A stretch of DNA of 64,000 nucleotides from a bacterium (lineage in GTDB: Archaea; Micrarchaeota; Micrarchaeia; Micrarchaeales; CABMGC01). Shown piece by piece: positions 413 to 46,052 of the stretch (within the stretch, counting starts at the first letter, position 1; each line of letters starts with the position of its first letter). The notes beneath the pieces were generated by a model. It saw only the letters and a program-made list of their open reading frames with translations, was not told the origin of the DNA and searched no databases. The stretch lies in assembly GCA_021829835.1 (NCBI GenBank), contig JAKBPE010000003.1, forward strand, positions 3,427 through 67,426, written 5' to 3'. A program made the translations under genes and the position numbers.

Positions 413-1264
413 TTATTTATCCAACTCCTCTTTCATCTTCTCGAAAATAGTGACCGGCTCCCAAGAATTCTGAGTGCCTCTGCGTGTTGGGTAAATACTG
501 ATATTTCGTGAGTTGCATAATCTCGTGATATTTTATCTGCAACTATTATATCTTTTTCCAGATCTTCCCTATCGGGTTCTATTATTCCACTGGTTTTAAG
601 ATAATCTATTACAAATTTGATTCTTCCTTTTTCTTTAAGTTCCTCTTTCGAAGGTTTTATTGAGATACGATTCCATGCTTGCTCCAGTATATGAGCGAAA
701 ACTTTACTTGAAATCATTGCAGGTGCTAGATCGTGCCCATTCTCAGCTTCTTCTATTGCCAATTCTATATTTTTAGTGTAAAGTTTACAAGTGTCACTTT
801 TTGTATTGGTGGATATTCGTTCCAATTGTGCTATCAAATGCCCTAACCTTTCCACATCTGCAAGTGGTATGGGTTTGATCTTAGAATCTAACACAGTCTT
901 AGATTTCTTAGAATTTCTAAGCATCATATCCAAATCTGGTTTTATCAGACGTGCTATTGGTATCGCATCCGGGGTCCGCATTACCTGCAGCCATAAGCTT
1001 ATCTATATCTACCACCTCTAAGCTTATGTTGGTAAGTTTGCTCATCTTTGTTGCTGCTTCATTGTAATCCTGGAATAAATCCATCGCAGTCTTGAGTTCT
1101 ATCTGCAATACATTGTATATACCAACAAATGCGACCTCATAACCTGCATAAACAATTGCAGTTTTGTCTAGAAGTGAGTTCATACGTCTCATAACTTCTG
1201 TACCACTTGAGATAATGGTAACAAATTCTTCATCCGGTTCTATGAAATCTGCTTGGTTATTCAT
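413..1264 (-). pseudogene. Frameshifted HEPN-like (DUF4145-like) protein
   Basis: ORFs 917..1264 and 433..981 join by removing one base in the C4 run at + 971-974 (..AD-PDAI..); a probable second shift near 458 gives a C-terminus VTIFEKMKEELDK* ending at 413; R-x4-H motif RDYATH. Confidence 0.5.
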
Positions 1265-1553
1265 ACGATCCGTTCGTACTGCTTCTACGGATTTATTAAT
1301 CTTTTATAATCTTATATTCTTCATAGATGCTATATGATTTTCTTTATCTTTGACTAAGTAGCTTGCACAAAGATGGCTTATAATCCAGGCATAGCCTATA
1401 TAACAGACTTTTTAGCATTGCTTCCAGTATATACACATACCAATTGGTGCAGACTATGAACAAAATCAAAGCTCGGCCAAGGCGCTTTCGTTTTAATTCG
1501 AGTGTTATAAAGGAACGCATATATTTGCATATGTAGTTGGCATAATCATCTTT

Positions 1554-2432
1554 GTGTTAGGTGTAACGTTGTCTAATTTTTTGATAGGCATTCTTTTTGG
1601 AATCTTTACCATGATTAGTTTTGGAATTCAGGACTTTTTAATGGCGAAGATATCAAGACAGATAGGCTCTTTCAGAACCTCCTTGTGGTTTGTTTTGCTA
1701 TCGTTTGTTGTTTTCATCATTCTGGCACTGTTTTTGTTCACAGATAGTGGAATAAACCCCTTTATGATTGTACTTCTGATAGCAACAGGTTTTGTCTCAG
1801 TTACAGCAATACTTTCATTTACTAAAGGTTTGGAAATTGGCAATATTTCAATTATAGCTACAATAGGAAACACGTGGGGAGCAGTTACTGCGCTTCTTGG
1901 GTTTTTGATTCTGGGGCAGAGGATAAGCAGCTTCCAGATTTTAGATATCTGCATCATAATAATAGGTACTGTCTTAGTCTCGTTAAATCTGAAGGACATT
2001 TTCAAGCTTAATCCAAACAAGATTCACGTAGGCCTGAAATATGCTTTTATTGCGGCAATTACTTTCGGGCTTTATTTCTTTCTCCTCTCATTTTTGACAA
2101 AGGCGTTGGGATGGTTTGATACGGCATTTCTTGTTACCATACCTATAATTCTGTTTTTGCTGTTGTACGGAACCTTGACAGGCAATAAATTGAGAGTAAA
2201 GAAAAGCAGGATGCCCCTTCTCTTTCTTATTGGTTTGTTAAGCATAGTGGGTCTTTTGTCATACAACCTTGGTGTGACATATAACTACACAGACATTGTT
2301 GCGCCTGTAAGTTCTGCTTCTCCTCTTGTAACAATAATTTTGGCTTCTCTGTTTCTTAAAGAGAGATTAACAAACAGCCAGAAAATCGGCGTGTTTCTCA
2401 TTTTGATAGGTTTAGTTTTATTATCAGTATAG
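1554..2432 (+). CDS. EamA/DMT family transporter
   Basis: About 10 TM helices in two repeats; C-terminal LASLFLKERL...IGVFLILIGLVLL signature. Confidence 0.9.
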   Translation: MLGVTLSNFLIGILFGIFTMISFGIQDFLMAKISRQIGSFRTSLWFVLLSFVVFIILALFLFTDSGINPFMIVLLIATGFVSVTAILSFTKGLEIGNISIIATIGNTWGAVTALLGFLILGQRISSFQILDICIIIIGTVLVSLNLKDIFKLNPNKIHVGLKYAFIAAITFGLYFFLLSFLTKALGWFDTAFLVTIPIILFLLLYGTLTGNKLRVKKSRMPLLFLIGLLSIVGLLSYNLGVTYNYTDIVAPVSSASPLVTIILASLFLKERLTNSQKIGVFLILIGLVLLSV

Positions 2433-2521
2433 CCTTAATCCGCTTTGTGTTGTTTGCAGTGGGATTTTTTACTTGTATGAAGCACTTGGACAGATAATGT
2501 AATGCAGCGTGTTATATTTTC

Positions 2522-3580
2522 TTACGCACTTTCTTTATTGTCGAGAAACTTTAATGATATCATTGCATTCATGTGCTGCAATGTAACTATGCCTATTGCC
2601 CTGCCATTTTTCGAGACAACTCCGAGTGGTTTGCCTTCCATCTCTATTTTTCTAATTGCAGATAGTATGTTAGTTCCGCTGTTGAATTGAGGTATAGGCA
2701 TGCCTATGGCAGTTATATCTGAATCGGAGCGAACATTTTTCCTAAAAAGATCCAGCAGCAGGAAATCCTTTCCGTTTTTAGTTATGGCGACAGATGTGCC
2801 TCGTCCTTCCATAATCCGATATAGGTCTTTTATGGTGGTCTTTTTGTCTATGAGTACAAATCGCTTGTCTATGGCGCTCTTTATATTCATTTTTTCCGTC
2901 TTTTTTGTTATTATTGCATTCTGCACCTCAGCTATGGCTCCCCCATACAGGATAAACCCTACAAAGGCAAATATTACAAAGTCGAGTATCTTTTCAGTTA
3001 ATGAAAAGTTGGAGAGCCATAGGTAACCTATAGATCCTATGACAATAATGACTGCAACATACTTGCTTATCTTCCCAGTAAGCATTGTTGAGTCTAACAT
3101 ATTCCTCTTTTTTTCAAGGTAGCTTCGGAAGACTCTGCCCCCGTCAAGGGGAAATGCGGGGAGCAGATTTAGTACTCCGAGAGCTACATTTAGTATGAAG
3201 AGTTCTTGCAGTACAAATACAAAATTCCCCATTGGAGCAAAGACGGAAAGGATTCCAAAAATGCCACCTAAGAAGACGCTCATCAACGGCCCTGATATGG
3301 CTATATTTAGCTCCTGTTTTCTATCTATTTTATCATTGTCGAGGGATGTTGCTCCGCCTAAAGGAGTCAGGAGAATGTCTCTTACTTTTATATTGTTTTT
3401 CCTTGCAGTATAGGCATGTGCCGCTTCGTGTATGAAAACGCATACAAAAAGGAGCAGGAATATCAGGAAGATCATAATGTTGTAAAACAGCAGGAAAAAA
3501 AGCATAAGCATGACAAATGTCCAGTGGAGATTTACATTTATCCCCCAGATCTTGCCTATGCGTATAGAATTCAAAGACAA
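2522..3580 (-). CDS. Site-2 protease (M50) with C-terminal CBS domains
   Basis: HEAAH zinc motif, ISGP, NLLPAFPLDGG; CBS-like GIVT repeat at C-terminus. Confidence 0.92.
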   Translation of the reverse strand: MSLNSIRIGKIWGINVNLHWTFVMLMLFFLLFYNIMIFLIFLLLFVCVFIHEAAHAYTARKNNIKVRDILLTPLGGATSLDNDKIDRKQELNIAISGPLMSVFLGGIFGILSVFAPMGNFVFVLQELFILNVALGVLNLLPAFPLDGGRVFRSYLEKKRNMLDSTMLTGKISKYVAVIIVIGSIGYLWLSNFSLTEKILDFVIFAFVGFILYGGAIAEVQNAIITKKTEKMNIKSAIDKRFVLIDKKTTIKDLYRIMEGRGTSVAITKNGKDFLLLDLFRKNVRSDSDITAIGMPIPQFNSGTNILSAIRKIEMEGKPLGVVSKNGRAIGIVTLQHMNAMISLKFLDNKESA

Positions 3581-3720
3581 ACTAAAACCTGATTCTGGAT
3601 GGGGTATTTAAGTATAAATATCATTCTGCACTTTGAAAGTGCGCATGTGGGTATAAAAATATGTAATATGTATAAAGATATTAATTTTCAATAGATATTG
3701 AGAAGTTGCATAGGTATAAC

Positions 3721-4170
3721 ATGGAGAAAACAGAAGGAATTTCTGGAAGGTGGCCTGGAGGATACAGAAGGATACAGTGGCTTAGGTTAAGTATGGTATT
3801 CTTTGCCCTTCTCGGTGCCGCATCGCATATATTTGCAAGCCCTGGCGCTACTCCGGAAGTAACATTCTGGATAGAGACGGAAGTGGTAGCATATGTCATA
3901 ATAGGGGTAGTCTACCTTTTTGGGCTTAAGATGTGGTATGTTCCAGCGATACTTTATACTGTGCTGAATCTGACCATATTTTTTACATCCGCAGTTGTAG
4001 TCATACCAGGAATAACATCGGGGCTTTTAATAGGGCACATGCAGTTTGCAGAATACTCGTTCGGCAGGGCGGGATCTCTTGTCTCATGGATGTATCTTCT
4101 TGTGGTAGGCATAATAATGCTGAAGATAGACAAGGGTTCAAAGATCAATGATCTTCTGAAACAAGGATAG
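3721..4170 (+). CDS. Hypothetical membrane protein (about 4 TM)
   Basis: ORF with several hydrophobic segments; AT-rich promoter-like region upstream. Confidence 0.65.
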   Translation: MEKTEGISGRWPGGYRRIQWLRLSMVFFALLGAASHIFASPGATPEVTFWIETEVVAYVIIGVVYLFGLKMWYVPAILYTVLNLTIFFTSAVVVIPGITSGLLIGHMQFAEYSFGRAGSLVSWMYLLVVGIIMLKIDKGSKINDLLKQG

Positions 4171-4179
4171 AATTGGGAA

Positions 4180-4461
4180 TCATCTATCTGCAAAAATATA
4201 AGTGCTCCCAGAGTAATGGATTATCCATGTGTCATTTATATGCACTATAGAGGAGTCTGGAAATGTTATAAGGCCATAGTCTGCGCGAACTGGAAAATTT
4301 ATCGGAAATGATTCAGACTCGGCAGTGGCATATGCAAGAGAGTTGAGCCTGTAGTACATGGAATTCAGGTTGCTTGATTGAATATACATGCTTAACATTA
4401 ATCCCATTTGTATCGTAGATGCAAAAATTATGGATATCAATAGTATTCCGTAAAAAGACAT
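4180..4461 (-). CDS. Small pilin-like protein, last gene of pilus operon 1
   Basis: N-terminal hydrophobic helix; abuts the upstream pilin genes. Confidence 0.55.
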   Translation of the reverse strand: MSFYGILLISIIFASTIQMGLMLSMYIQSSNLNSMYYRLNSLAYATAESESFPINFPVRADYGLITFPDSSIVHINDTWIIHYSGSTYIFADR

Positions 4462-4839
4462 TCAGCCAGCCTCTATGCATATATAACCAGTACCAGATGC
4501 TGCGTTATATGTGAAACACCTTGTTTGATAAGGCCCTGAAGACGCATTTCCAAATGGAACTACCTCGAATAACCTGAGGCCGTAAATATCCCGGTATTCC
4601 TGGGTTTTTATTCCACATGAGGGGTATTCCGGACCGTGTAAAAATATGCATTCGCTTTCGGATGAGTTGCGTGCAAGCTGGCTCATGAAGTCATATGATG
4701 CAAAGCCTGAAGCCATTATTTCTCTGGCTTTAGATGAAGATGCGGAGAAGCTTTTTATGCAGTATGTTGAGAATAAGAGCACGAGAAGAACTACCATTAA
4801 AGAGGCTATTGATTCGAGGCTTGCAAACTGGATTTTCAT
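4462..4839 (-). CDS. Minor pilin (class III signal peptide-like)
   Basis: MKI|QFASLES followed by hydrophobic helix; four Cys in the globular part. Confidence 0.7.
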   Translation of the reverse strand: MKIQFASLESIASLMVVLLVLLFSTYCIKSFSASSSKAREIMASGFASYDFMSQLARNSSESECIFLHGPEYPSCGIKTQEYRDIYGLRLFEVVPFGNASSGPYQTRCFTYNAASGTGYICIEAG

Positions 4840-4843
4840 CAGA

Positions 4844-6133
4844 TCAGCTCACTTTCAGGTTTACTATTGAACCATAATAAGGCAGAGTGGTATTGCCCGG
4901 ATAGGTATTGTTGTAGAGAGTCAGGTTTATTATGTACGTAAATGGATAAGCCGGCTTGCAGTCATAGTATAAGCCGCTTATGCCGCATGATAAATTGCTG
5001 TTGTTATATTGATGGACACTGTCGAGAAGGCTCCTTGCATTCAAGTCCATAGCTGAAACAGCTTCCTGGATTGCTGATGAAGTGGAATAAGATACGCCTG
5101 TTGAGTTGTAGAATCTTAGAACCTGATATGCGTTATTTTCCGCTTCGATATATCCGGAGTATGCAAAGTTGCTTATTTGGGAATATCCCTGCTGGCTTTG
5201 TATATATGGTGAGGTTGTTAGGCTGGATACGGTCACACTTTCCACTGTTGCATTTCCTATGATTTTGCCGTCCTGCATTATTAAAGAGGAGGGTTTTGCA
5301 GAAGAAAGATTAAATAGCAAGGTCTTTGAATCTCCATTTATTCTTACAAGTATCTTATAGTCGTAGGAATAGTTAGCAGTATTGGGAAGCAATATTCTGT
5401 ATCCTGATTCTCCTGGAACAAAGCAGTAGGTTCTTGAGTATGACCAGTCTGGGGATTCACAACTCCCGTCAAAGACCATGTAATCCCAGGAATTTGTTGA
5501 ACCGCATTGTATGCTTGGGGGATATATAAGGCCAGACCAGACATCTTTTTCGGTGCAGTGATTGGATTCGTTTATATATGAGACGCTTGATGCGCTGAAG
5601 GGATATGAAACACTTTCATTTTCATAGGTTATTGCGGCTGTAATTGCACTTTCATTTTTCTGTGCAGGAGCTGTGGAGGAATAGGTATTGTATTCGGAAG
5701 AGCCGGAGTTGCTGTATTTTCCGCAGGTGATGTTGTAATCAAGGTTTAGAAGATGCTGTCCTGAATTTTCAGGATCGAAATAAAGATATTTTATTGTTGC
5801 TCCTGTAAAGTTGTAGGAAAGGCTGTTATTTGAAAAGGCTACTGAGGCGGAACTCAGGCTTAATTCCGCCTTTCCATTATTGCATCCGTAAGTTTCCATA
5901 AACATTGGATTTCCAGAAAGGGTAGTTGAATTTAATGGAACGTATGCGTAAAGATTAGGATGCTCTCCGGATGTTGAAGATAAGTTGTTTTGGATGTTAT
6001 TTGGATTTGTGAATGCGTCATATGCCTGACGGCTTACAGCAAGAGTGTTTCCATACAGTGAGAGTATGCCGAGTGATAGGGCTGCAATGGCAGATAGTAT
6101 AAGAAGAAATTCAAGGCTTGACTGGATATTCAT
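4844..6133 (-). CDS. Large minor pilin / putative adhesin
   Basis: MNI|QSSLEF plus TM; Ser/Asn/Tyr-rich extracellular domain with paired Cys and many N-x-S/T sequons. Confidence 0.75.
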   Translation of the reverse strand: MNIQSSLEFLLILSAIAALSLGILSLYGNTLAVSRQAYDAFTNPNNIQNNLSSTSGEHPNLYAYVPLNSTTLSGNPMFMETYGCNNGKAELSLSSASVAFSNNSLSYNFTGATIKYLYFDPENSGQHLLNLDYNITCGKYSNSGSSEYNTYSSTAPAQKNESAITAAITYENESVSYPFSASSVSYINESNHCTEKDVWSGLIYPPSIQCGSTNSWDYMVFDGSCESPDWSYSRTYCFVPGESGYRILLPNTANYSYDYKILVRINGDSKTLLFNLSSAKPSSLIMQDGKIIGNATVESVTVSSLTTSPYIQSQQGYSQISNFAYSGYIEAENNAYQVLRFYNSTGVSYSTSSAIQEAVSAMDLNARSLLDSVHQYNNSNLSCGISGLYYDCKPAYPFTYIINLTLYNNTYPGNTTLPYYGSIVNLKVS

Positions 6134-23446: not shown

Positions 23447-24043
23447 ATGAAAGCATTATGGAATATTGGAGAGAAGGCACCTTCTATAAAGGCAAAGGGA
23501 TGGTTTCCTGAGATTAATAAAATAAAAGAGTTCAATCTTTCAGATTATTCGGGAAAGTGGGTGATATTAACATTTTATCCTGGTGATTTTACATTTGTCT
23601 GCGCAACTGACATAGAGGCTTTCATGTCAAGTTATGAAGAATTCAGAAAAAATGGTGCCGAGATAGTTGCAATAAGCACAGACAGCATTTATTCACATAA
23701 AGCATGGAGTGATTCTTCGCCTAGAGTGAAGGAAAGCAAGATACCTCTGATAGAAGACTTTAACAAGAAGATATCCGTTGATTACGGCTTTCTTAATGAG
23801 GAATCTGGGGCATCGAGACGTGGAACAATAATAGTGGACCCTGATGGAAATATACAGTATGTATCAATACATAATGATGCCCTTGGAAAGGATGTTGACC
23901 ACGTGTATACCTCTTTCATGGCGCTTAAGTATGTAAGGGATACCAAGACAGAAGAAGGCCACGTATGCGCTATACCTGCTAACTGGAAGCTTGGAAAGAG
24001 AGCATTGGACATAGACATAGTAAATGACATAGGTAAGCTCTGA
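23447..24043 (+). CDS. ahpC: Peroxiredoxin (AhpC/TSA)
   Basis: FYPGDFTFVC peroxidatic motif; VCAIPANW resolving-Cys region. Confidence 0.93.
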   Translation: MKALWNIGEKAPSIKAKGWFPEINKIKEFNLSDYSGKWVILTFYPGDFTFVCATDIEAFMSSYEEFRKNGAEIVAISTDSIYSHKAWSDSSPRVKESKIPLIEDFNKKISVDYGFLNEESGASRRGTIIVDPDGNIQYVSIHNDALGKDVDHVYTSFMALKYVRDTKTEEGHVCAIPANWKLGKRALDIDIVNDIGKL

Positions 24044-28116: not shown

Positions 28117-28725
28117 TTATACAGTCTCCTTGCCGAAACGCTTGTCTACATCGTCCCAGTTTACAACATTCCACCATGCGTCCACATACTTTGCCCTGTC
28201 ATTCCAGTATTGCAGATAGTATGCATGTTCCCAGACATCAAGGCCTAACAAGATAGGAAGACCTGCAAGATGCATGAAGTTCTGCTTTTCTATCTGGGTA
28301 AGAACAAGCTGGTCTGTTTCCTGGTCATATAGAAGAAGAGCCCAGCCGCTGCCTTCTACGGTCTTTGCAGCTTCTGTAAATTGCAGCTTGAATTTGTCGA
28401 AGCTGCCGAAATCAGTGTTTATTTTATCGGCTATCTTGCCGCCAACTTTACCGCCGCCCTTTCCAGGAGGAGCCATGTTAGGCCAGAAGAGGCCATGCAG
28501 CTTATGCCCGCCGAAATTGAAGCTGTAGTCCCTCAAGACCGCTTTTATATCTATCTGAATTTCTCCGTTCCTCGCTTTTTCCAGTTTCTCGAGAGCGGCG
28601 TTTGCGCCGTTCACGTATGCTACATGATGCTTGTCATGATGCAGTTTCATTATCTGTTCGGATATATATGGTTCCAATGCATTGTATGCGTATGGCAGAT
28701 TAGGAACCTCGTATTTTTTTCCCAT
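28117..28725 (-). CDS. sod: Fe/Mn superoxide dismutase
   Basis: LHHDKHH, GSGW, DVWEHAYY. Confidence 0.97.
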   Translation of the reverse strand: MGKKYEVPNLPYAYNALEPYISEQIMKLHHDKHHVAYVNGANAALEKLEKARNGEIQIDIKAVLRDYSFNFGGHKLHGLFWPNMAPPGKGGGKVGGKIADKINTDFGSFDKFKLQFTEAAKTVEGSGWALLLYDQETDQLVLTQIEKQNFMHLAGLPILLGLDVWEHAYYLQYWNDRAKYVDAWWNVVNWDDVDKRFGKETV

Positions 28726-42562: not shown

Positions 42563-43279
42563 TTAGGCTCTTACTTCACAACGGCCAACATAGCCTAGCC
42601 CGTTTATCTCTAGGCATGTCTTATCTAGAATATTTTTTGAATATGGTTTTACTAAAGAGAGTTTACGGTCCAGAGTTTTTTCTGAATTGAATTGCTGCAG
42701 ATAATAGGAATCTGCGCCTTTTATGGCCATTGAAATGCTTATCAGGTCAGAAGGGGAGACCAATCCAGGAACAACAGTTGTCCTGAATTCGTGTGTTATC
42801 CCTGAGTTTATTATTAGGTTTATGCTCTTTATTATGTTTGATACTACCGATGTGCCTTTTAATCCGGTAGCTTCTGCATATTTTGAATTGTCAAGACCTG
42901 TTTTGATGTCCATGGCAATATAATTTACAAGACCGTTTTTTATTATGTCTTCTACTTTGTAAGGATTTAGCCCATTTGTATCTAACTTTACGGAGAGGCC
43001 TATTTTCTTTATTTTCCCGAGAAATATTTCAAGATCTTTTTGCAGGGTGGGCTCGCCGCCGGTTATAGTTACAGCTTCTATAAAATTCTTGGATTCGTTT
43101 AGCTTTCCTAGAATTTCTTCCTCCTCATATATGTGCAAAGAACTGTAATCTCTTTTGACAAGACTGCCGTTATGACAGAATGGACAGTACATGTTGCATC
43201 CGGTAAGAAAGATGATGGAGGTTATCTTCCCAGGATAGTCAATCAGACTGATCCTCTGAAAACCCCCTATCTCGACCAT
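42563..43279 (-). CDS. nrdG: Anaerobic RNR activating enzyme (radical SAM)
   Basis: SLIDYPG, CNMYCPFCHN, TGGEPT, EFRTT. Confidence 0.95.
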   Translation of the reverse strand: MVEIGGFQRISLIDYPGKITSIIFLTGCNMYCPFCHNGSLVKRDYSSLHIYEEEEILGKLNESKNFIEAVTITGGEPTLQKDLEIFLGKIKKIGLSVKLDTNGLNPYKVEDIIKNGLVNYIAMDIKTGLDNSKYAEATGLKGTSVVSNIIKSINLIINSGITHEFRTTVVPGLVSPSDLISISMAIKGADSYYLQQFNSEKTLDRKLSLVKPYSKNILDKTCLEINGLGYVGRCEVRA

Positions 43280-43283
43280 GCTA

Positions 43284-43481
43284 TCAGGCTTTCTGCTCTC
43301 TTGCTTTGTCGTAGGTCTTTCTATCCGAAAACTCTTCTTTCTTTCCCTGGTTCCATTGGGATACTGGCCTTAGATAACCCACGATTCTGGAGTATACCTC
43401 ACACTTTGTCCTTTCGGATGCATGCATTTCAAGTATCGTCTTTTCATTTACATCTATCTCGATCTGTTTTTCGTATTTCAT
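43284..43481 (-). CDS. Stand-alone glycyl-radical domain of class III RNR
   Basis: CEVYSRIVGYLRPVSQWNQGKKEEF..R; SD AGGTGG and ATGA overlap with the nrdD stop. Confidence 0.9.
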   Translation of the reverse strand: MKYEKQIEIDVNEKTILEMHASERTKCEVYSRIVGYLRPVSQWNQGKKEEFSDRKTYDKAREQKA

Positions 43482-45496
43482 TTTTCCACCTTTTTAAGTA
43501 TAAGTTCATCGCATTTTGGGCAGTACTCGTGTGAACCGTATATATGGCCATGTTTTGGGCATACACTGAATGTCGGAGTTATGGTATAGTAAGGCAGCTT
43601 AAAATTCTCAGCAATCTTTCTTACTAAAGCTTTTGTGGAATCCACAGAAGGCATAGCTTCGCCCAGGAAAGTATGTATAACTGTTCCACCAGTGTACTTT
43701 GATTGTATTTCGTCCTGATGTTTCAATACCTCAAATACATCATCAGTATGACCTACAGGAAGATGTGAGGAATTTGTATAGTATGGAGCTGCGCCATTTC
43801 TGAATGAATCTTCGTTTGCGACGATTATATCTTTGAAGGCTTTTTTATCCTTTAAGGCGAGGGAATAAGCTGTGCTTTCTGCAGGAGTCGCCTCCAGGTT
43901 GTAGATGTGGTTAGTCTCAATCTGATAATCCTCAAGAACATCTCTCATGAAGTCTAGTGTTTTCAATGCGAACTTTCTTCCTTCGCTGCTGGCTATGCCG
44001 TTTTCCTTTCCGAGGAGGTTCATGCATGCTTCATTCATCCCTACTATGCCTATTGTTGCGAAATGGTTTTTCCAGTATTCTCCGTATGCTGACTTTATTC
44101 CGCTGAGATAATGCTTAGAATATGGATATAGGTTCATTTCGGTGAAGTTCTCAAGTGTCTTCCTCTTCACTTCAAGACCTTCTTTTGATACATCCATTAT
44201 TTCATTAAGGCGCTCGAAAAACCCTTTCTCATCCTTTGCCAGATAGCCTATTCTAGGAAGGTTTATGGTAAAGACACCTATTGATCCTGTTAGAGGGTTG
44301 GCTCCGAAAAGGCCGCCGCCTCTCTTCTTTAATTCTCGTGTGTCAAGCCTTAGTCTGCAGCACATGCTCCTTGCATCTTCGGGGCGCATATCGCTGTTTA
44401 TGAAATTTGAGAAGTATGGTATGCCATACTTCCTTGTCATCTCCCATATTGAATTATATCTCTCGTTTTCCCAGTCGAAATCCTTGGTTATGTTGTATGT
44501 GGGTATTGGAAAAGTAAATACCCTGCCCACCGCATCTCCTTCAGTCATTACTTCTGCGAATGCTCTATTGATCATATCCATTTCATTCTGAAATTCCGAG
44601 TACGTGTTCTCAGTTATCTTGCCTCCTATTATGACACCTTCGCTCTTGAGATAATCCGGTACTTTGAGGTCAAGGGTCAGATTTGTAAAGGGGGTCTGAA
44701 AGCCGACTCGTGTGGGAACATTCATATTGAATAGAAACTCCTGCATTCCCTGCAGCACTTGGTTGTAGTTTAGACCATCGTATTTGATGAATGGCGCGAG
44801 ATATGTATCAAAATTTGAAAAAGCCTGGGCGCCTGCGCTTTCTCCTTGAAGAGTGTAGAAGAAATTGACTATTTGCATTAAGGCTGTTCTGAAATGTCTT
44901 GCAGGTTTTGATTCAACCTTGCCCCTCGCTCCACCGAAGCCTCGTATCAGCAGGTCTTTAAGATCCCAGCCGACACAGTATGGACCCAGGACATTCAATT
45001 GGTGTATATGCAGATCTCCGCTTTGATGCATCATTCTTAGCTTTTCGGGATATATGCGGTTAAGCCAGTATGCGGAAACTATCTTAGAAGTAACATAGTT
45101 GTTCAGGCCCTGCAGCGAGTAATCCATGTTTGCGTTTTCTTTTACTGCCCAGTCTTTTTTGTATATGTAATCTTCAACAGTCTCTATGTCTTTAACCAGT
45201 GATGAAAGCTGCCTTATTTCCTTGTGCTGTTGCCTGTATAGGATATAGGATTTTGCAAGTTCGGGGTAGTTGTTTTCTATTAAGGTAATCTCTACAATGT
45301 CCTGAATCTGCTCTACGGAAGGCGTGCTTTTATAATACTGGTCTATCTTGTCTGAAACTTCTGAAGTGAGTCTCGCCGCTTCGTTTTCCGAACCTTTAAA
45401 ATTCACAGCAAGCATAGCTTTCTGTATTGCATCTTTTATTTTCTCAGGCTGGAAGGGAACCACTGATCCGTCTCTTTTTATTACAAAATTGGCCAT
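43478..45496 (-). CDS. nrdD: Class III ribonucleotide reductase catalytic subunit (ATP cone; lacks the glycyl loop)
   Basis: VIKRDG ATP cone, PYC, FTFPIPT, SMCCRL, EATPAES, YTGGT, C-terminal CPKH..CPKC then stop. Confidence 0.95.
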   Translation of the reverse strand: MANFVIKRDGSVVPFQPEKIKDAIQKAMLAVNFKGSENEAARLTSEVSDKIDQYYKSTPSVEQIQDIVEITLIENNYPELAKSYILYRQQHKEIRQLSSLVKDIETVEDYIYKKDWAVKENANMDYSLQGLNNYVTSKIVSAYWLNRIYPEKLRMMHQSGDLHIHQLNVLGPYCVGWDLKDLLIRGFGGARGKVESKPARHFRTALMQIVNFFYTLQGESAGAQAFSNFDTYLAPFIKYDGLNYNQVLQGMQEFLFNMNVPTRVGFQTPFTNLTLDLKVPDYLKSEGVIIGGKITENTYSEFQNEMDMINRAFAEVMTEGDAVGRVFTFPIPTYNITKDFDWENERYNSIWEMTRKYGIPYFSNFINSDMRPEDARSMCCRLRLDTRELKKRGGGLFGANPLTGSIGVFTINLPRIGYLAKDEKGFFERLNEIMDVSKEGLEVKRKTLENFTEMNLYPYSKHYLSGIKSAYGEYWKNHFATIGIVGMNEACMNLLGKENGIASSEGRKFALKTLDFMRDVLEDYQIETNHIYNLEATPAESTAYSLALKDKKAFKDIIVANEDSFRNGAAPYYTNSSHLPVGHTDDVFEVLKHQDEIQSKYTGGTVIHTFLGEAMPSVDSTKALVRKIAENFKLPYYTITPTFSVCPKHGHIYGSHEYCPKCDELILKKVEK

Positions 45497-45641: not shown

Positions 45642-46052
45642 CTAGTTTTTACTCGGTAATTCTGCTTTTTCGGGATTGTGCTGCAGGAATAGATAGCATT
45701 CTGCACACTTACGTTCGGTGCAGAGTGGGCTTGTCCCATATGCCTTTGTTCCGAATGATTTCAGATCCTTTATGATCTTCTCAAGTCCAAGACCGTTTTT
45801 CGTGAGCGTGTATTTAATATGTGTTACTCCGTTTTTTTTATATTCTGATTTTTTCACTATACCCGCATTGGAAAAATCCCTGAGTATCGCACTCAGGCCT
45901 CTTGGTGTTATCTCTTTCAACGAGAGCAGTATTTCGTTAAAGGATGTACTGCCACCTGCACCACTTATACTCTCTACTACAGGGATAGACCATCTCTTCC
46001 CCAGTATATGCAGAAGATTTAGGGTTGCGCATGATTCTGTTTCGGCTTTCAT
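45642..46052 (-). CDS. HxlR/DUF24-family transcriptional regulator with Cys-rich tail
   Basis: C...L..LGKRWS, FNEI, ITPRGLS..L, YTLT..G; C-terminal CTERKCAEC. Confidence 0.88.
   Translation of the reverse strand: MKAETESCATLNLLHILGKRWSIPVVESISGAGGSTSFNEILLSLKEITPRGLSAILRDFSNAGIVKKSEYKKNGVTHIKYTLTKNGLGLEKIIKDLKSFGTKAYGTSPLCTERKCAECYLFLQHNPEKAELPSKN

Follow-up and report, generated by a model that had tools for sequence, protein, structure and literature searches.

How can a class III (anaerobic) ribonucleotide reductase (RNR) work when its catalytic protein, NrdD, stops short of the loop that should carry the radical glycine? The question is raised by three genes in a stretch of 64,000 nucleotides (nt) of Micrarchaeota DNA (contig JAKBPE010000003.1, positions 3,427 to 67,426 of the forward strand; hereafter the window), which lie head to tail on the minus strand in the order nrdD, a small open reading frame (ORF) of 65 amino acids (aa), and nrdG. 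We consider it highly probable that the answer is an obligate two-chain class III RNR, in which the glycyl-radical domain is supplied by the product of the small ORF.

The nrdD gene (43478..45496, minus strand) encodes a 672-aa body with an ATP-cone (body residues 4-93, 45218..45487, minus strand; PF03477, 94.3 bits), an alpha/beta-barrel core and a putative zinc site, and without a glycyl-radical loop. Its product ends in CPKHGHIYGSHEYCPKCDELILKKVEK and a stop codon, 10 residues past the C-terminal zinc-site motif (C646-x2-H649-x9-C659-x2-C662; 43511..43561, minus strand), and contains no RxxGY. C646, H649 and C659 are unchanged across 15 aligned NrdD bodies, and the four-residue motif probably binds zinc, by analogy with the solved NrdDs as described in the P. 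copri paper. The TGA stop of nrdD shares the tetranucleotide ATGA (43478..43481, minus strand) with the start codon of the small ORF, which lies in the -1 frame and whose ATG is preceded at a distance of 4 nt by a Shine-Dalgarno (SD)-like AGGTGG (43486..43491, minus strand); the same ATGA overlap is seen at loci L001-L005, L034, L035 and L037. The small subunit itself (43284..43481, minus strand) comprises a variable N-terminal linker (residues 1-22), a Gly-radical loop and a C-terminal tail, and contains the segment ERTKCEVYSRIVGYLRPVSQWNQGKKEEF, which includes the RIVGY motif (R32-Y36, 43374..43388, minus strand). This motif aligns with YMRIVGYL of T. maritima NrdD (4COI, residues 616-623), and G35 (43377-43379) is by homology the presumed radical glycine. 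An invariant cysteine of the small chain, Cys27 (43401..43403, minus strand), which stands out in both the alignment and the predicted complex described below, may serve as a zinc ligand or as a redox partner. Beginning 4 nt past the small-ORF stop, nrdG (42563..43279, minus strand) encodes a radical S-adenosylmethionine (SAM) activase of 238 aa (TIGR02495 NrdG2, 203.6 bits with a cut-off of 131.15; Radical_SAM, 78 bits).

Profile searches divide one NrdD between the two ORFs. The Pfam NRDD profile (562 positions) matches the body over positions 1-528 with 591.8 bits and the small ORF over positions 530-562 with 43.8 bits (cut-off 26.2), and NF006126 (684 positions) is covered by the body from 3 to 649 (1024.4 bits, cut-off 548) and by the small ORF from 649 to 683; TIGR02487 also matches the body (517.2 bits, cut-off 326.35). 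The RxxGY loop is not on the same polypeptide as the barrel core, and it is the two ORFs jointly that satisfy the NrdD profile. T. maritima NrdD (4COI) aligns to body residues 162-664. The small chain alone had no match among PDB sequences (phmmer, E <= 0.01), and a 40-row small-chain profile did reach T. maritima NrdD there (E 0.002). These results bear out the first-pass annotation of the locus, which had described an NrdD ending after its zinc site without RxxGY (the ORF translation and the profile end at 528/562 agree), a separate small ORF with the ATGA overlap and AGGTGG 4 nt upstream (coordinates and sequence agree), and nrdG behind the small ORF (the TIGR02495 match at 43279..42563).

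The source genome is a metagenome bin of 0.99 Mb in 38 contigs, with 89% completeness and 3% contamination. Runs from 9 studies, of metagenomes from mine drainage, mine tailings and sediment, have contigs that contain the stretch. One of these runs, X4, does not belong to the possible source study, and two of its contigs (records 12 and 13) run across positions 43478-43481. One of the two is identical over 43360-43532, and the other shows 14 differences together with an in-frame insertion of 9 nt behind 43451; a further contig (X8, record 23) extends no more than 26 letters beyond the junction on one side and was not counted as bridging. No 1- or 2-nt indel was listed in the contigs of 4 runs, the 9-nt in-frame insertion being the sole indel. 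Contigs that were assembled from a different study thus cross the junction with both reading frames unshifted, the split is not an artefact, and the indel fusing the two frames, for which the first-pass annotation had wanted the junction checked, is not found in these contigs.

The split extends well beyond the window. In the genus, every one of the seven genomes with region data (7/7, counting that of the window) has the split, with NrdD identities ranging from 62% to 96%, and their junctions vary: five have the ATGA overlap, G005 has the -1 frame and a body that ends differently, and in G002 the body stops at an in-frame TGA and a restart ATG comes after 18 nt. In another family of the same order, G025 has a fused NrdD that reads CPIC, 8 residues and CEVYSRIVGY; relative to this fused sister, the split forms are longer at the cut by about 28 residues (body, 10; small chain, about 22). 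When the small ORF was used as a query on 401 sampled genomes of the phylum, 70 matched, 44 of them with a split locus, 25 fused only and 1 undetermined because its match lies at a contig start; with the addition of three genus members from beyond the phylum sample, the places amount to 47 split and 28 fused. None of the conclusions depends on the unpublished genome G038. Across the 47 split places the body stop is TGA, TAA or TAG, the small ORF is in the same or another frame, and its start ranges from 77 nt before to 254 nt after the body stop. After removal of three rows shorter than 250 residues, a tree of 72 NrdD bodies, of which 45 are split and 27 fused, was generated with a quick IQ-TREE search and with Shimodaira-Hasegawa-like approximate likelihood ratio (SH-aLRT) values as the only support. 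On this tree the split/fused label must change at least 9 times, or at least 6 times if starred branches alone are trusted, and shuffled labels average 22 changes; the root was not inferred, and therefore gains and losses of the split are indistinguishable. The window falls in an 8-row split clade (support 90) with a 3-row fused group as its sister, the resulting 11-row group having a support of 99 (starred), and the genus members G005 and G002 carry an NrdD from a different, likewise split, clade.

A search of the protein database, which reaches outside the phylum, gave 601 homologues with lengths of 35-114 aa (E <= 0.001), some of which may be contig-end fragments. Annotation pipelines already label some of these small proteins: several from cultured bacteria (Orenia marismortui, Sporohalobacter salinus) bear the name "anaerobic ribonucleoside-triphosphate reductase", and among the 120 homologues listed most are unnamed. 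In a genome scan, the best 80 loci were classified and hold 81 matches, of which 52 are one-piece (48 fused and 4 fused as far as the locus reaches) and 29 are short. The short matches occur in the order body-small-nrdG in 15 cases, which include Micrarchaeota, Woesearchaeota, Saccharibacteria, Dojkabacteria, Elusimicrobia, Hippea and Anaerolineae, and in the order body-nrdG-small in 8 bacterial cases, which include the isolate Halanaerobium saccharolyticum MA284_T2, Pyramidobacter, Synergistales and Bacillota; five have no detected upstream body (four of these also lack nrdG, and L135 has an nrdG match about 730 nt upstream), and one is ambiguous. A tblastn comparison of the small chain with 50,697 phage records matched 3 records. 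The layout is conserved and widespread. The survey of nrdD neighbourhoods thus recovered the same split in the genus, in the wider phylum and in bacteria, the close relatives are not all fused, and the expectation of the first-pass annotation that similar short ORFs may exist in other genomes is met by the 601 database proteins.

Two further arrangements were observed in which a Gly-loop ORF stands apart from a split nrdD. In a genome of the same class (L063, G396:C3:13000-19000), a full-length, divergent NrdD of 740 aa (ORF 1212..3434, minus strand) has upstream of it both a glutaredoxin/NrdH-like ORF and a 133-aa protein (ORFs 3493..3780 and 3881..4282, minus strand), the latter composed of a Cys-rich N-terminal part and an NrdD-type Gly loop that resembles the loop of the same genome's full-length enzyme; an NrdR-like ORF lies further upstream (4638..5186, minus strand). 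Judged from sequence, this pairing of a full-length enzyme with an apparent stand-alone radical domain is a GrcA-like layout. Another genome, G327, has a normal split locus (L066) and, in addition, on a 2.9-kb contig without nrdD or nrdG, an isolated Gly-loop ORF of 62 aa (L067, contig C136, ORF 2111..2299, minus strand); this ORF lacks the otherwise invariant Cys and may be viral or an unlinked second copy.

Multisequence alignment of 40 small chains revealed 15 invariant columns, namely C27, Y30, S31, R32, V34, G35, Y36, R38, P39, W43, N44, G46, K47, E50 and R54. Within the window's clade, the nonsynonymous divergence (dN) of the 36-codon core is 0.01-0.21, with synonymous divergence (dS) saturated in 24 of 28 pairs, and dN/dS in the 4 computable pairs is 0.03-0.11; the small-ORF core is under strong purifying selection. 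The N-terminal linker (14-25 codons) gives noisy values of 0.30-2.27, which are near neutral. SD-like 4-mers are found at -18 to -4 of 40 of the 47 small ORFs, vs 21.8% of 5868 ATG triplets at the same loci, and SD-like 5-mers at 36 of the 47, vs 7.7% of the triplets.

Cysteines also recur elsewhere in the small chains. Many end in Cys or in Cys pairs (CC, CEC or KC; L034, L035, L037, L044, L062, L074, L076-L078, L097 and L099), an ending reminiscent of the redox cysteines at the C-terminus of class I and II RNRs; the chain of the window has none. A CPHCG knuckle is present in the small chain of L101-L105, and the small chains of L062, L074-L081, L097 and L099 have another Cys four residues ahead of the invariant one; in clades with either feature the zinc site seems to be shared between both chains.

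The weakest alternative, that the gene is simply broken, whether by a sequencing or assembly error or as a decaying nrdD pseudogene tolerated owing to a class I RNR, can point to the origin of the genome in a metagenome bin and to its class I NrdA-like alpha subunit (NF005544, 1299.5 bits), which may make NrdD dispensable, but it is already largely refuted, and almost certainly wrong, given the same junction in independent contigs, a split kept across NrdD identities of 62-96% in the genus, the intact state of body, small ORF and nrdG alike, and the low dN/dS of the small-ORF core.

Recoding at the junction, in which a -1 ribosomal frameshift or stop readthrough would yield a single fused NrdD, is very improbable for other reasons. 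An A-run precedes the ATGA in L001-L005 and L034, and a tRNA-Lys slipping by -1 on it would continue into ATG AAA; however, the run is interrupted in L035 and L037, which are 2 of the 8 members of the clade, and the in-frame TGA of G002, the TAA and TAG stops and the gaps of up to 254 nt found elsewhere cannot use the same trick. In the 8 bacterial loci with the alternative order nrdG even lies between the body and the small gene, and nearly every small ORF has an SD-like motif and an ATG in front of it. The varied stops, frames and spacings therefore rule out a single recoding mechanism common to all loci, and likewise an altered genetic code; a special genetic code or selenocysteine at the TGA was rejected as an explanation since relatives have TAA and TAG there.

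In the two-chain enzyme that we favor, the 672-aa body would carry the ATP-cone, the barrel with its Cys finger loop and the zinc site, and the separately translated 65-aa chain would carry the radical glycine G35 in RIVGY together with the C-terminal tail. The small chain would be made by translational coupling, from an ATG that overlaps the nrdD stop after the SD-like AGGTGG, and would dock into the body like the C-terminus of a one-chain NrdD, its Gly loop reaching into the barrel; the product of nrdG, the gene 4 nt downstream, would then use SAM to install the radical on G35, giving a normal class III active site. We infer the active two-chain enzyme and the location of the radical from the evidence above, and the same applies to any benefit of the split.

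Structure prediction is consistent with such docking. Folding of body residues 100-672 (15-row alignment) with zinc and the small chain (40-row alignment) gave interaction prediction scores from aligned errors (ipSAE) of 0.82, 0.81 and 0.80 in three runs, vs 0.00 for the best of 3 controls, with a predicted local distance difference test score (pLDDT) of 76-77 for the partner and agreement between runs in at least 91% of contacts; the mark for a complex is reached by 116 of 157 solved complexes and by 2 of 215 mismatched pairs. The body is contacted by small-chain residues 23-38 and 42-59 in the prediction, with residues 28-30 forming a predicted strand pairing with body residues 642-645 beside the zinc site and with C27 predicted to contact C646, H656 and C659 of the body. 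Body residues 122-123, of the NxN motif (N121, N123), also touch the small chain in the predicted complex; in P. copri NrdD, an NxN flap is reported to bridge to the radical domain. The complex modelling proposed in the first-pass annotation accordingly places the small chain in the body (ipSAE 0.80-0.82), and the structural half of its proposal, a two-chain class III RNR, stands on conservation in genus and clade with varied junctions, purifying selection, SD-like motifs at 40 of 47 small ORFs and a confident complex prediction.

Several observations weigh against this conclusion. One-chain NrdD structures have been solved (4COI, 4U3E, 8P23 and 1H78), and the complex score may come from a memory of these proteins, in which case it would show likeness and not binding; moreover, our own alignments and the zinc ion riding along put the prediction outside the calibration of the complex tool. 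No RNA run was listed as containing the stretch, and the support for the junction consists of assembled contigs, not raw reads. The run GGAAAAATGA in the closest relatives could in principle allow tRNA-Lys to slip by -1 at the stop codon, and hence some fused product in this subclade. The near-neutral linker means that no specific docking element is evident there. Lastly, in the small ORF of one locus (L073, G094:C18, 2104..2247, minus strand) the conserved Trp codon reads TAG, which reflects either a decaying copy or a sequencing error, so some split copies may be decaying.

If the enzyme has two chains, what is gained by the split? Oxygen cleaves the backbone of glycyl radical enzymes at the radical glycine, and in pyruvate formate-lyase a small protein, YfiD/GrcA, once activated, substitutes for the damaged domain (JBC 2021; Biochemistry 2026 review). 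By analogy, a replaceable radical module is plausible for NrdD as well: NrdG could activate the free chain, which would dock into the body, and after cleavage by oxygen at G35 a fresh chain could take its place while the body survives. We regard this cycle as a tentative proposal, and it is similarly doubtful whether the benefit of the split lies in cheap replacement of an oxygen-cleaved chain or in activation of the free chain by NrdG before docking. The radical domain of NrdD is mobile in the P. copri work, which fits a detachable part. Were the proposal true, a glycyl radical enzyme other than the formate lyases would come with its own spare parts built in.

The organism is a fitting one for this proposal. 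The window contains profile matches to an Fe/Mn superoxide dismutase (Sod_Fe_C, 28138-28440, minus strand) and a peroxiredoxin (AhpC-TSA, 23465-23863, plus strand), as the first-pass annotation had said of the organism, and AhpC-TSA has 5 matches genome-wide. The genome also encodes a class I NrdA-like RNR alpha subunit of 997 aa with an ATP-cone (G000:C30:25305-26912, L186), and this subunit together with the present NrdD means that the organism has both an oxygen-dependent and an oxygen-sensitive RNR. Because the stretch occurs in mine-drainage and sediment metagenomes, the organism is placed at oxic-anoxic boundaries, and its gene content fits a life with oxygen pulses.

A spare part in the strict sense is harder to reconcile with the locus. 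The genome (89% complete) contains no full-length NrdD to rescue, and no second small gene, the second match (G000:C21:1-123) being a strain variant. That match was considered as a spare gene and rejected, since its contig (G000:C21:1-1623, L032) repeats the end of the small ORF (this part being 95% identical), the 238-aa nrdG and the next gene as in the window; two strains were co-assembled in the bin, consistent with its 3% contamination. The ATGA coupling, moreover, points to stoichiometric co-production and not to a separately regulated spare.

The alternative that survives best accepts the two-chain enzyme and denies any advantage of a replaceable module: the linker tolerates a break, the parts still assemble, and the split arises and reverts repeatedly without benefit. 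We give this neutral account not far short of an even chance. It is consistent with the at least 9 state changes on the 72-row tree (at least 6 with starred branches alone), with the highly varied junctions, with the near-neutral evolution of the linker, and with the splits known in the class I alpha subunit of phage Aeh1 and in class II (NrdJa/NrdJb), for which no repair role is known. Conversely, the split is the commoner state in the phylum sample (44 of 70 matched genomes) and persists over saturated synonymous divergence, and a stand-alone domain beside a full-length NrdD (G396) or as an unlinked copy (G327) is hard to explain by neutral fission. Taken together, neutral recurrent fission explains the data equally well as a benefit from a replaceable module.

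Other features of these loci were recorded. Directly upstream of nrdD in the window, on the same strand, lies a 136-aa ORF (45642-46052, minus strand) that by eye resembles a winged-helix regulator. At L062 (G309:C18:5500-12000), two tandem nrdD paralogues flank one nrdG, the split one with an ATP-cone (body 631-2616, small ORF 2780-3022) and the fused one without (about 3793-5628). Large in-frame inserts, giving open frames of 1043-1958 aa, occur in the NrdD genes of L007/L027 (G025:C2), L078, L085, L120 and L170; those of G025 and L078 lie at about body residue 380, adjoining the conserved CC finger loop, and the inserts are probably inteins.

A natural split NrdD would offer a direct experimental handle on spare parts beyond pyruvate formate-lyase, since one could activate, label, exchange or titrate its small chain in trans, and it bears on how an activase reaches a glycine buried in the finished enzyme. 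It also matters for annotation: split nrdD genes look truncated, and a partner of 40-80 aa is easily missed or left unnamed. In the full-text literature, with subscription-only papers and supplements outside the search, no account was found of an NrdD whose radical loop has a gene of its own. Dwivedi et al. (2013) ascribe nrdD splits in phages to introns, inteins, homing endonucleases or unknown processes, and two papers on spare parts treat such proteins as validated only for pyruvate formate-lyase, other family members being an open question (JBC 2021; Biochemistry 2026 review).

Among known systems, the nearest is the one-chain NrdD with its NrdG (T. maritima 4COI/4U3E, P. copri 8P23, phage T4 1H78), which shares the Pfam and NCBIfam families, the ATP-cone and the barrel, has nrdG adjacent, and likewise places the Gly loop and tail after the zinc site, which is putative in the present enzyme; in the latter, unlike these, the polypeptide ends after that site and the Gly loop is on a second chain. 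The second zinc-ligand position is here a His (C-x2-H) and not a Cys, the zinc site of phage T4 NrdD having four Cys. Two adjacent ORFs that work as one catalytic subunit are also found in NrdJa/NrdJb (class II, P. aeruginosa) and in NrdA-a/NrdA-b (class I, Aeromonas phage Aeh1); those splits, however, leave the radical-bearing element unseparated, unlike the split described here. The small chain itself most resembles GrcA/YfiD of E. coli and Y06I of phage T4, which are likewise small stand-alone glycyl-radical-loop proteins with a poorly conserved N-terminal part, and like them it would be activated by its cognate radical-SAM activase and would occupy the radical-domain site of the enzyme. 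GrcA belongs to the pyruvate formate-lyase family and rescues a full-length enzyme after oxygen cleavage, whereas the small chain belongs to the NrdD family: no match to the pyruvate formate-lyase-type Gly_radical Pfam family was listed for it, its only Pfam match at E <= 0.01 being NRDD. Unlike GrcA, moreover, the small chain would be the sole radical domain of its enzyme, encoded by a gene coupled to that of the body.

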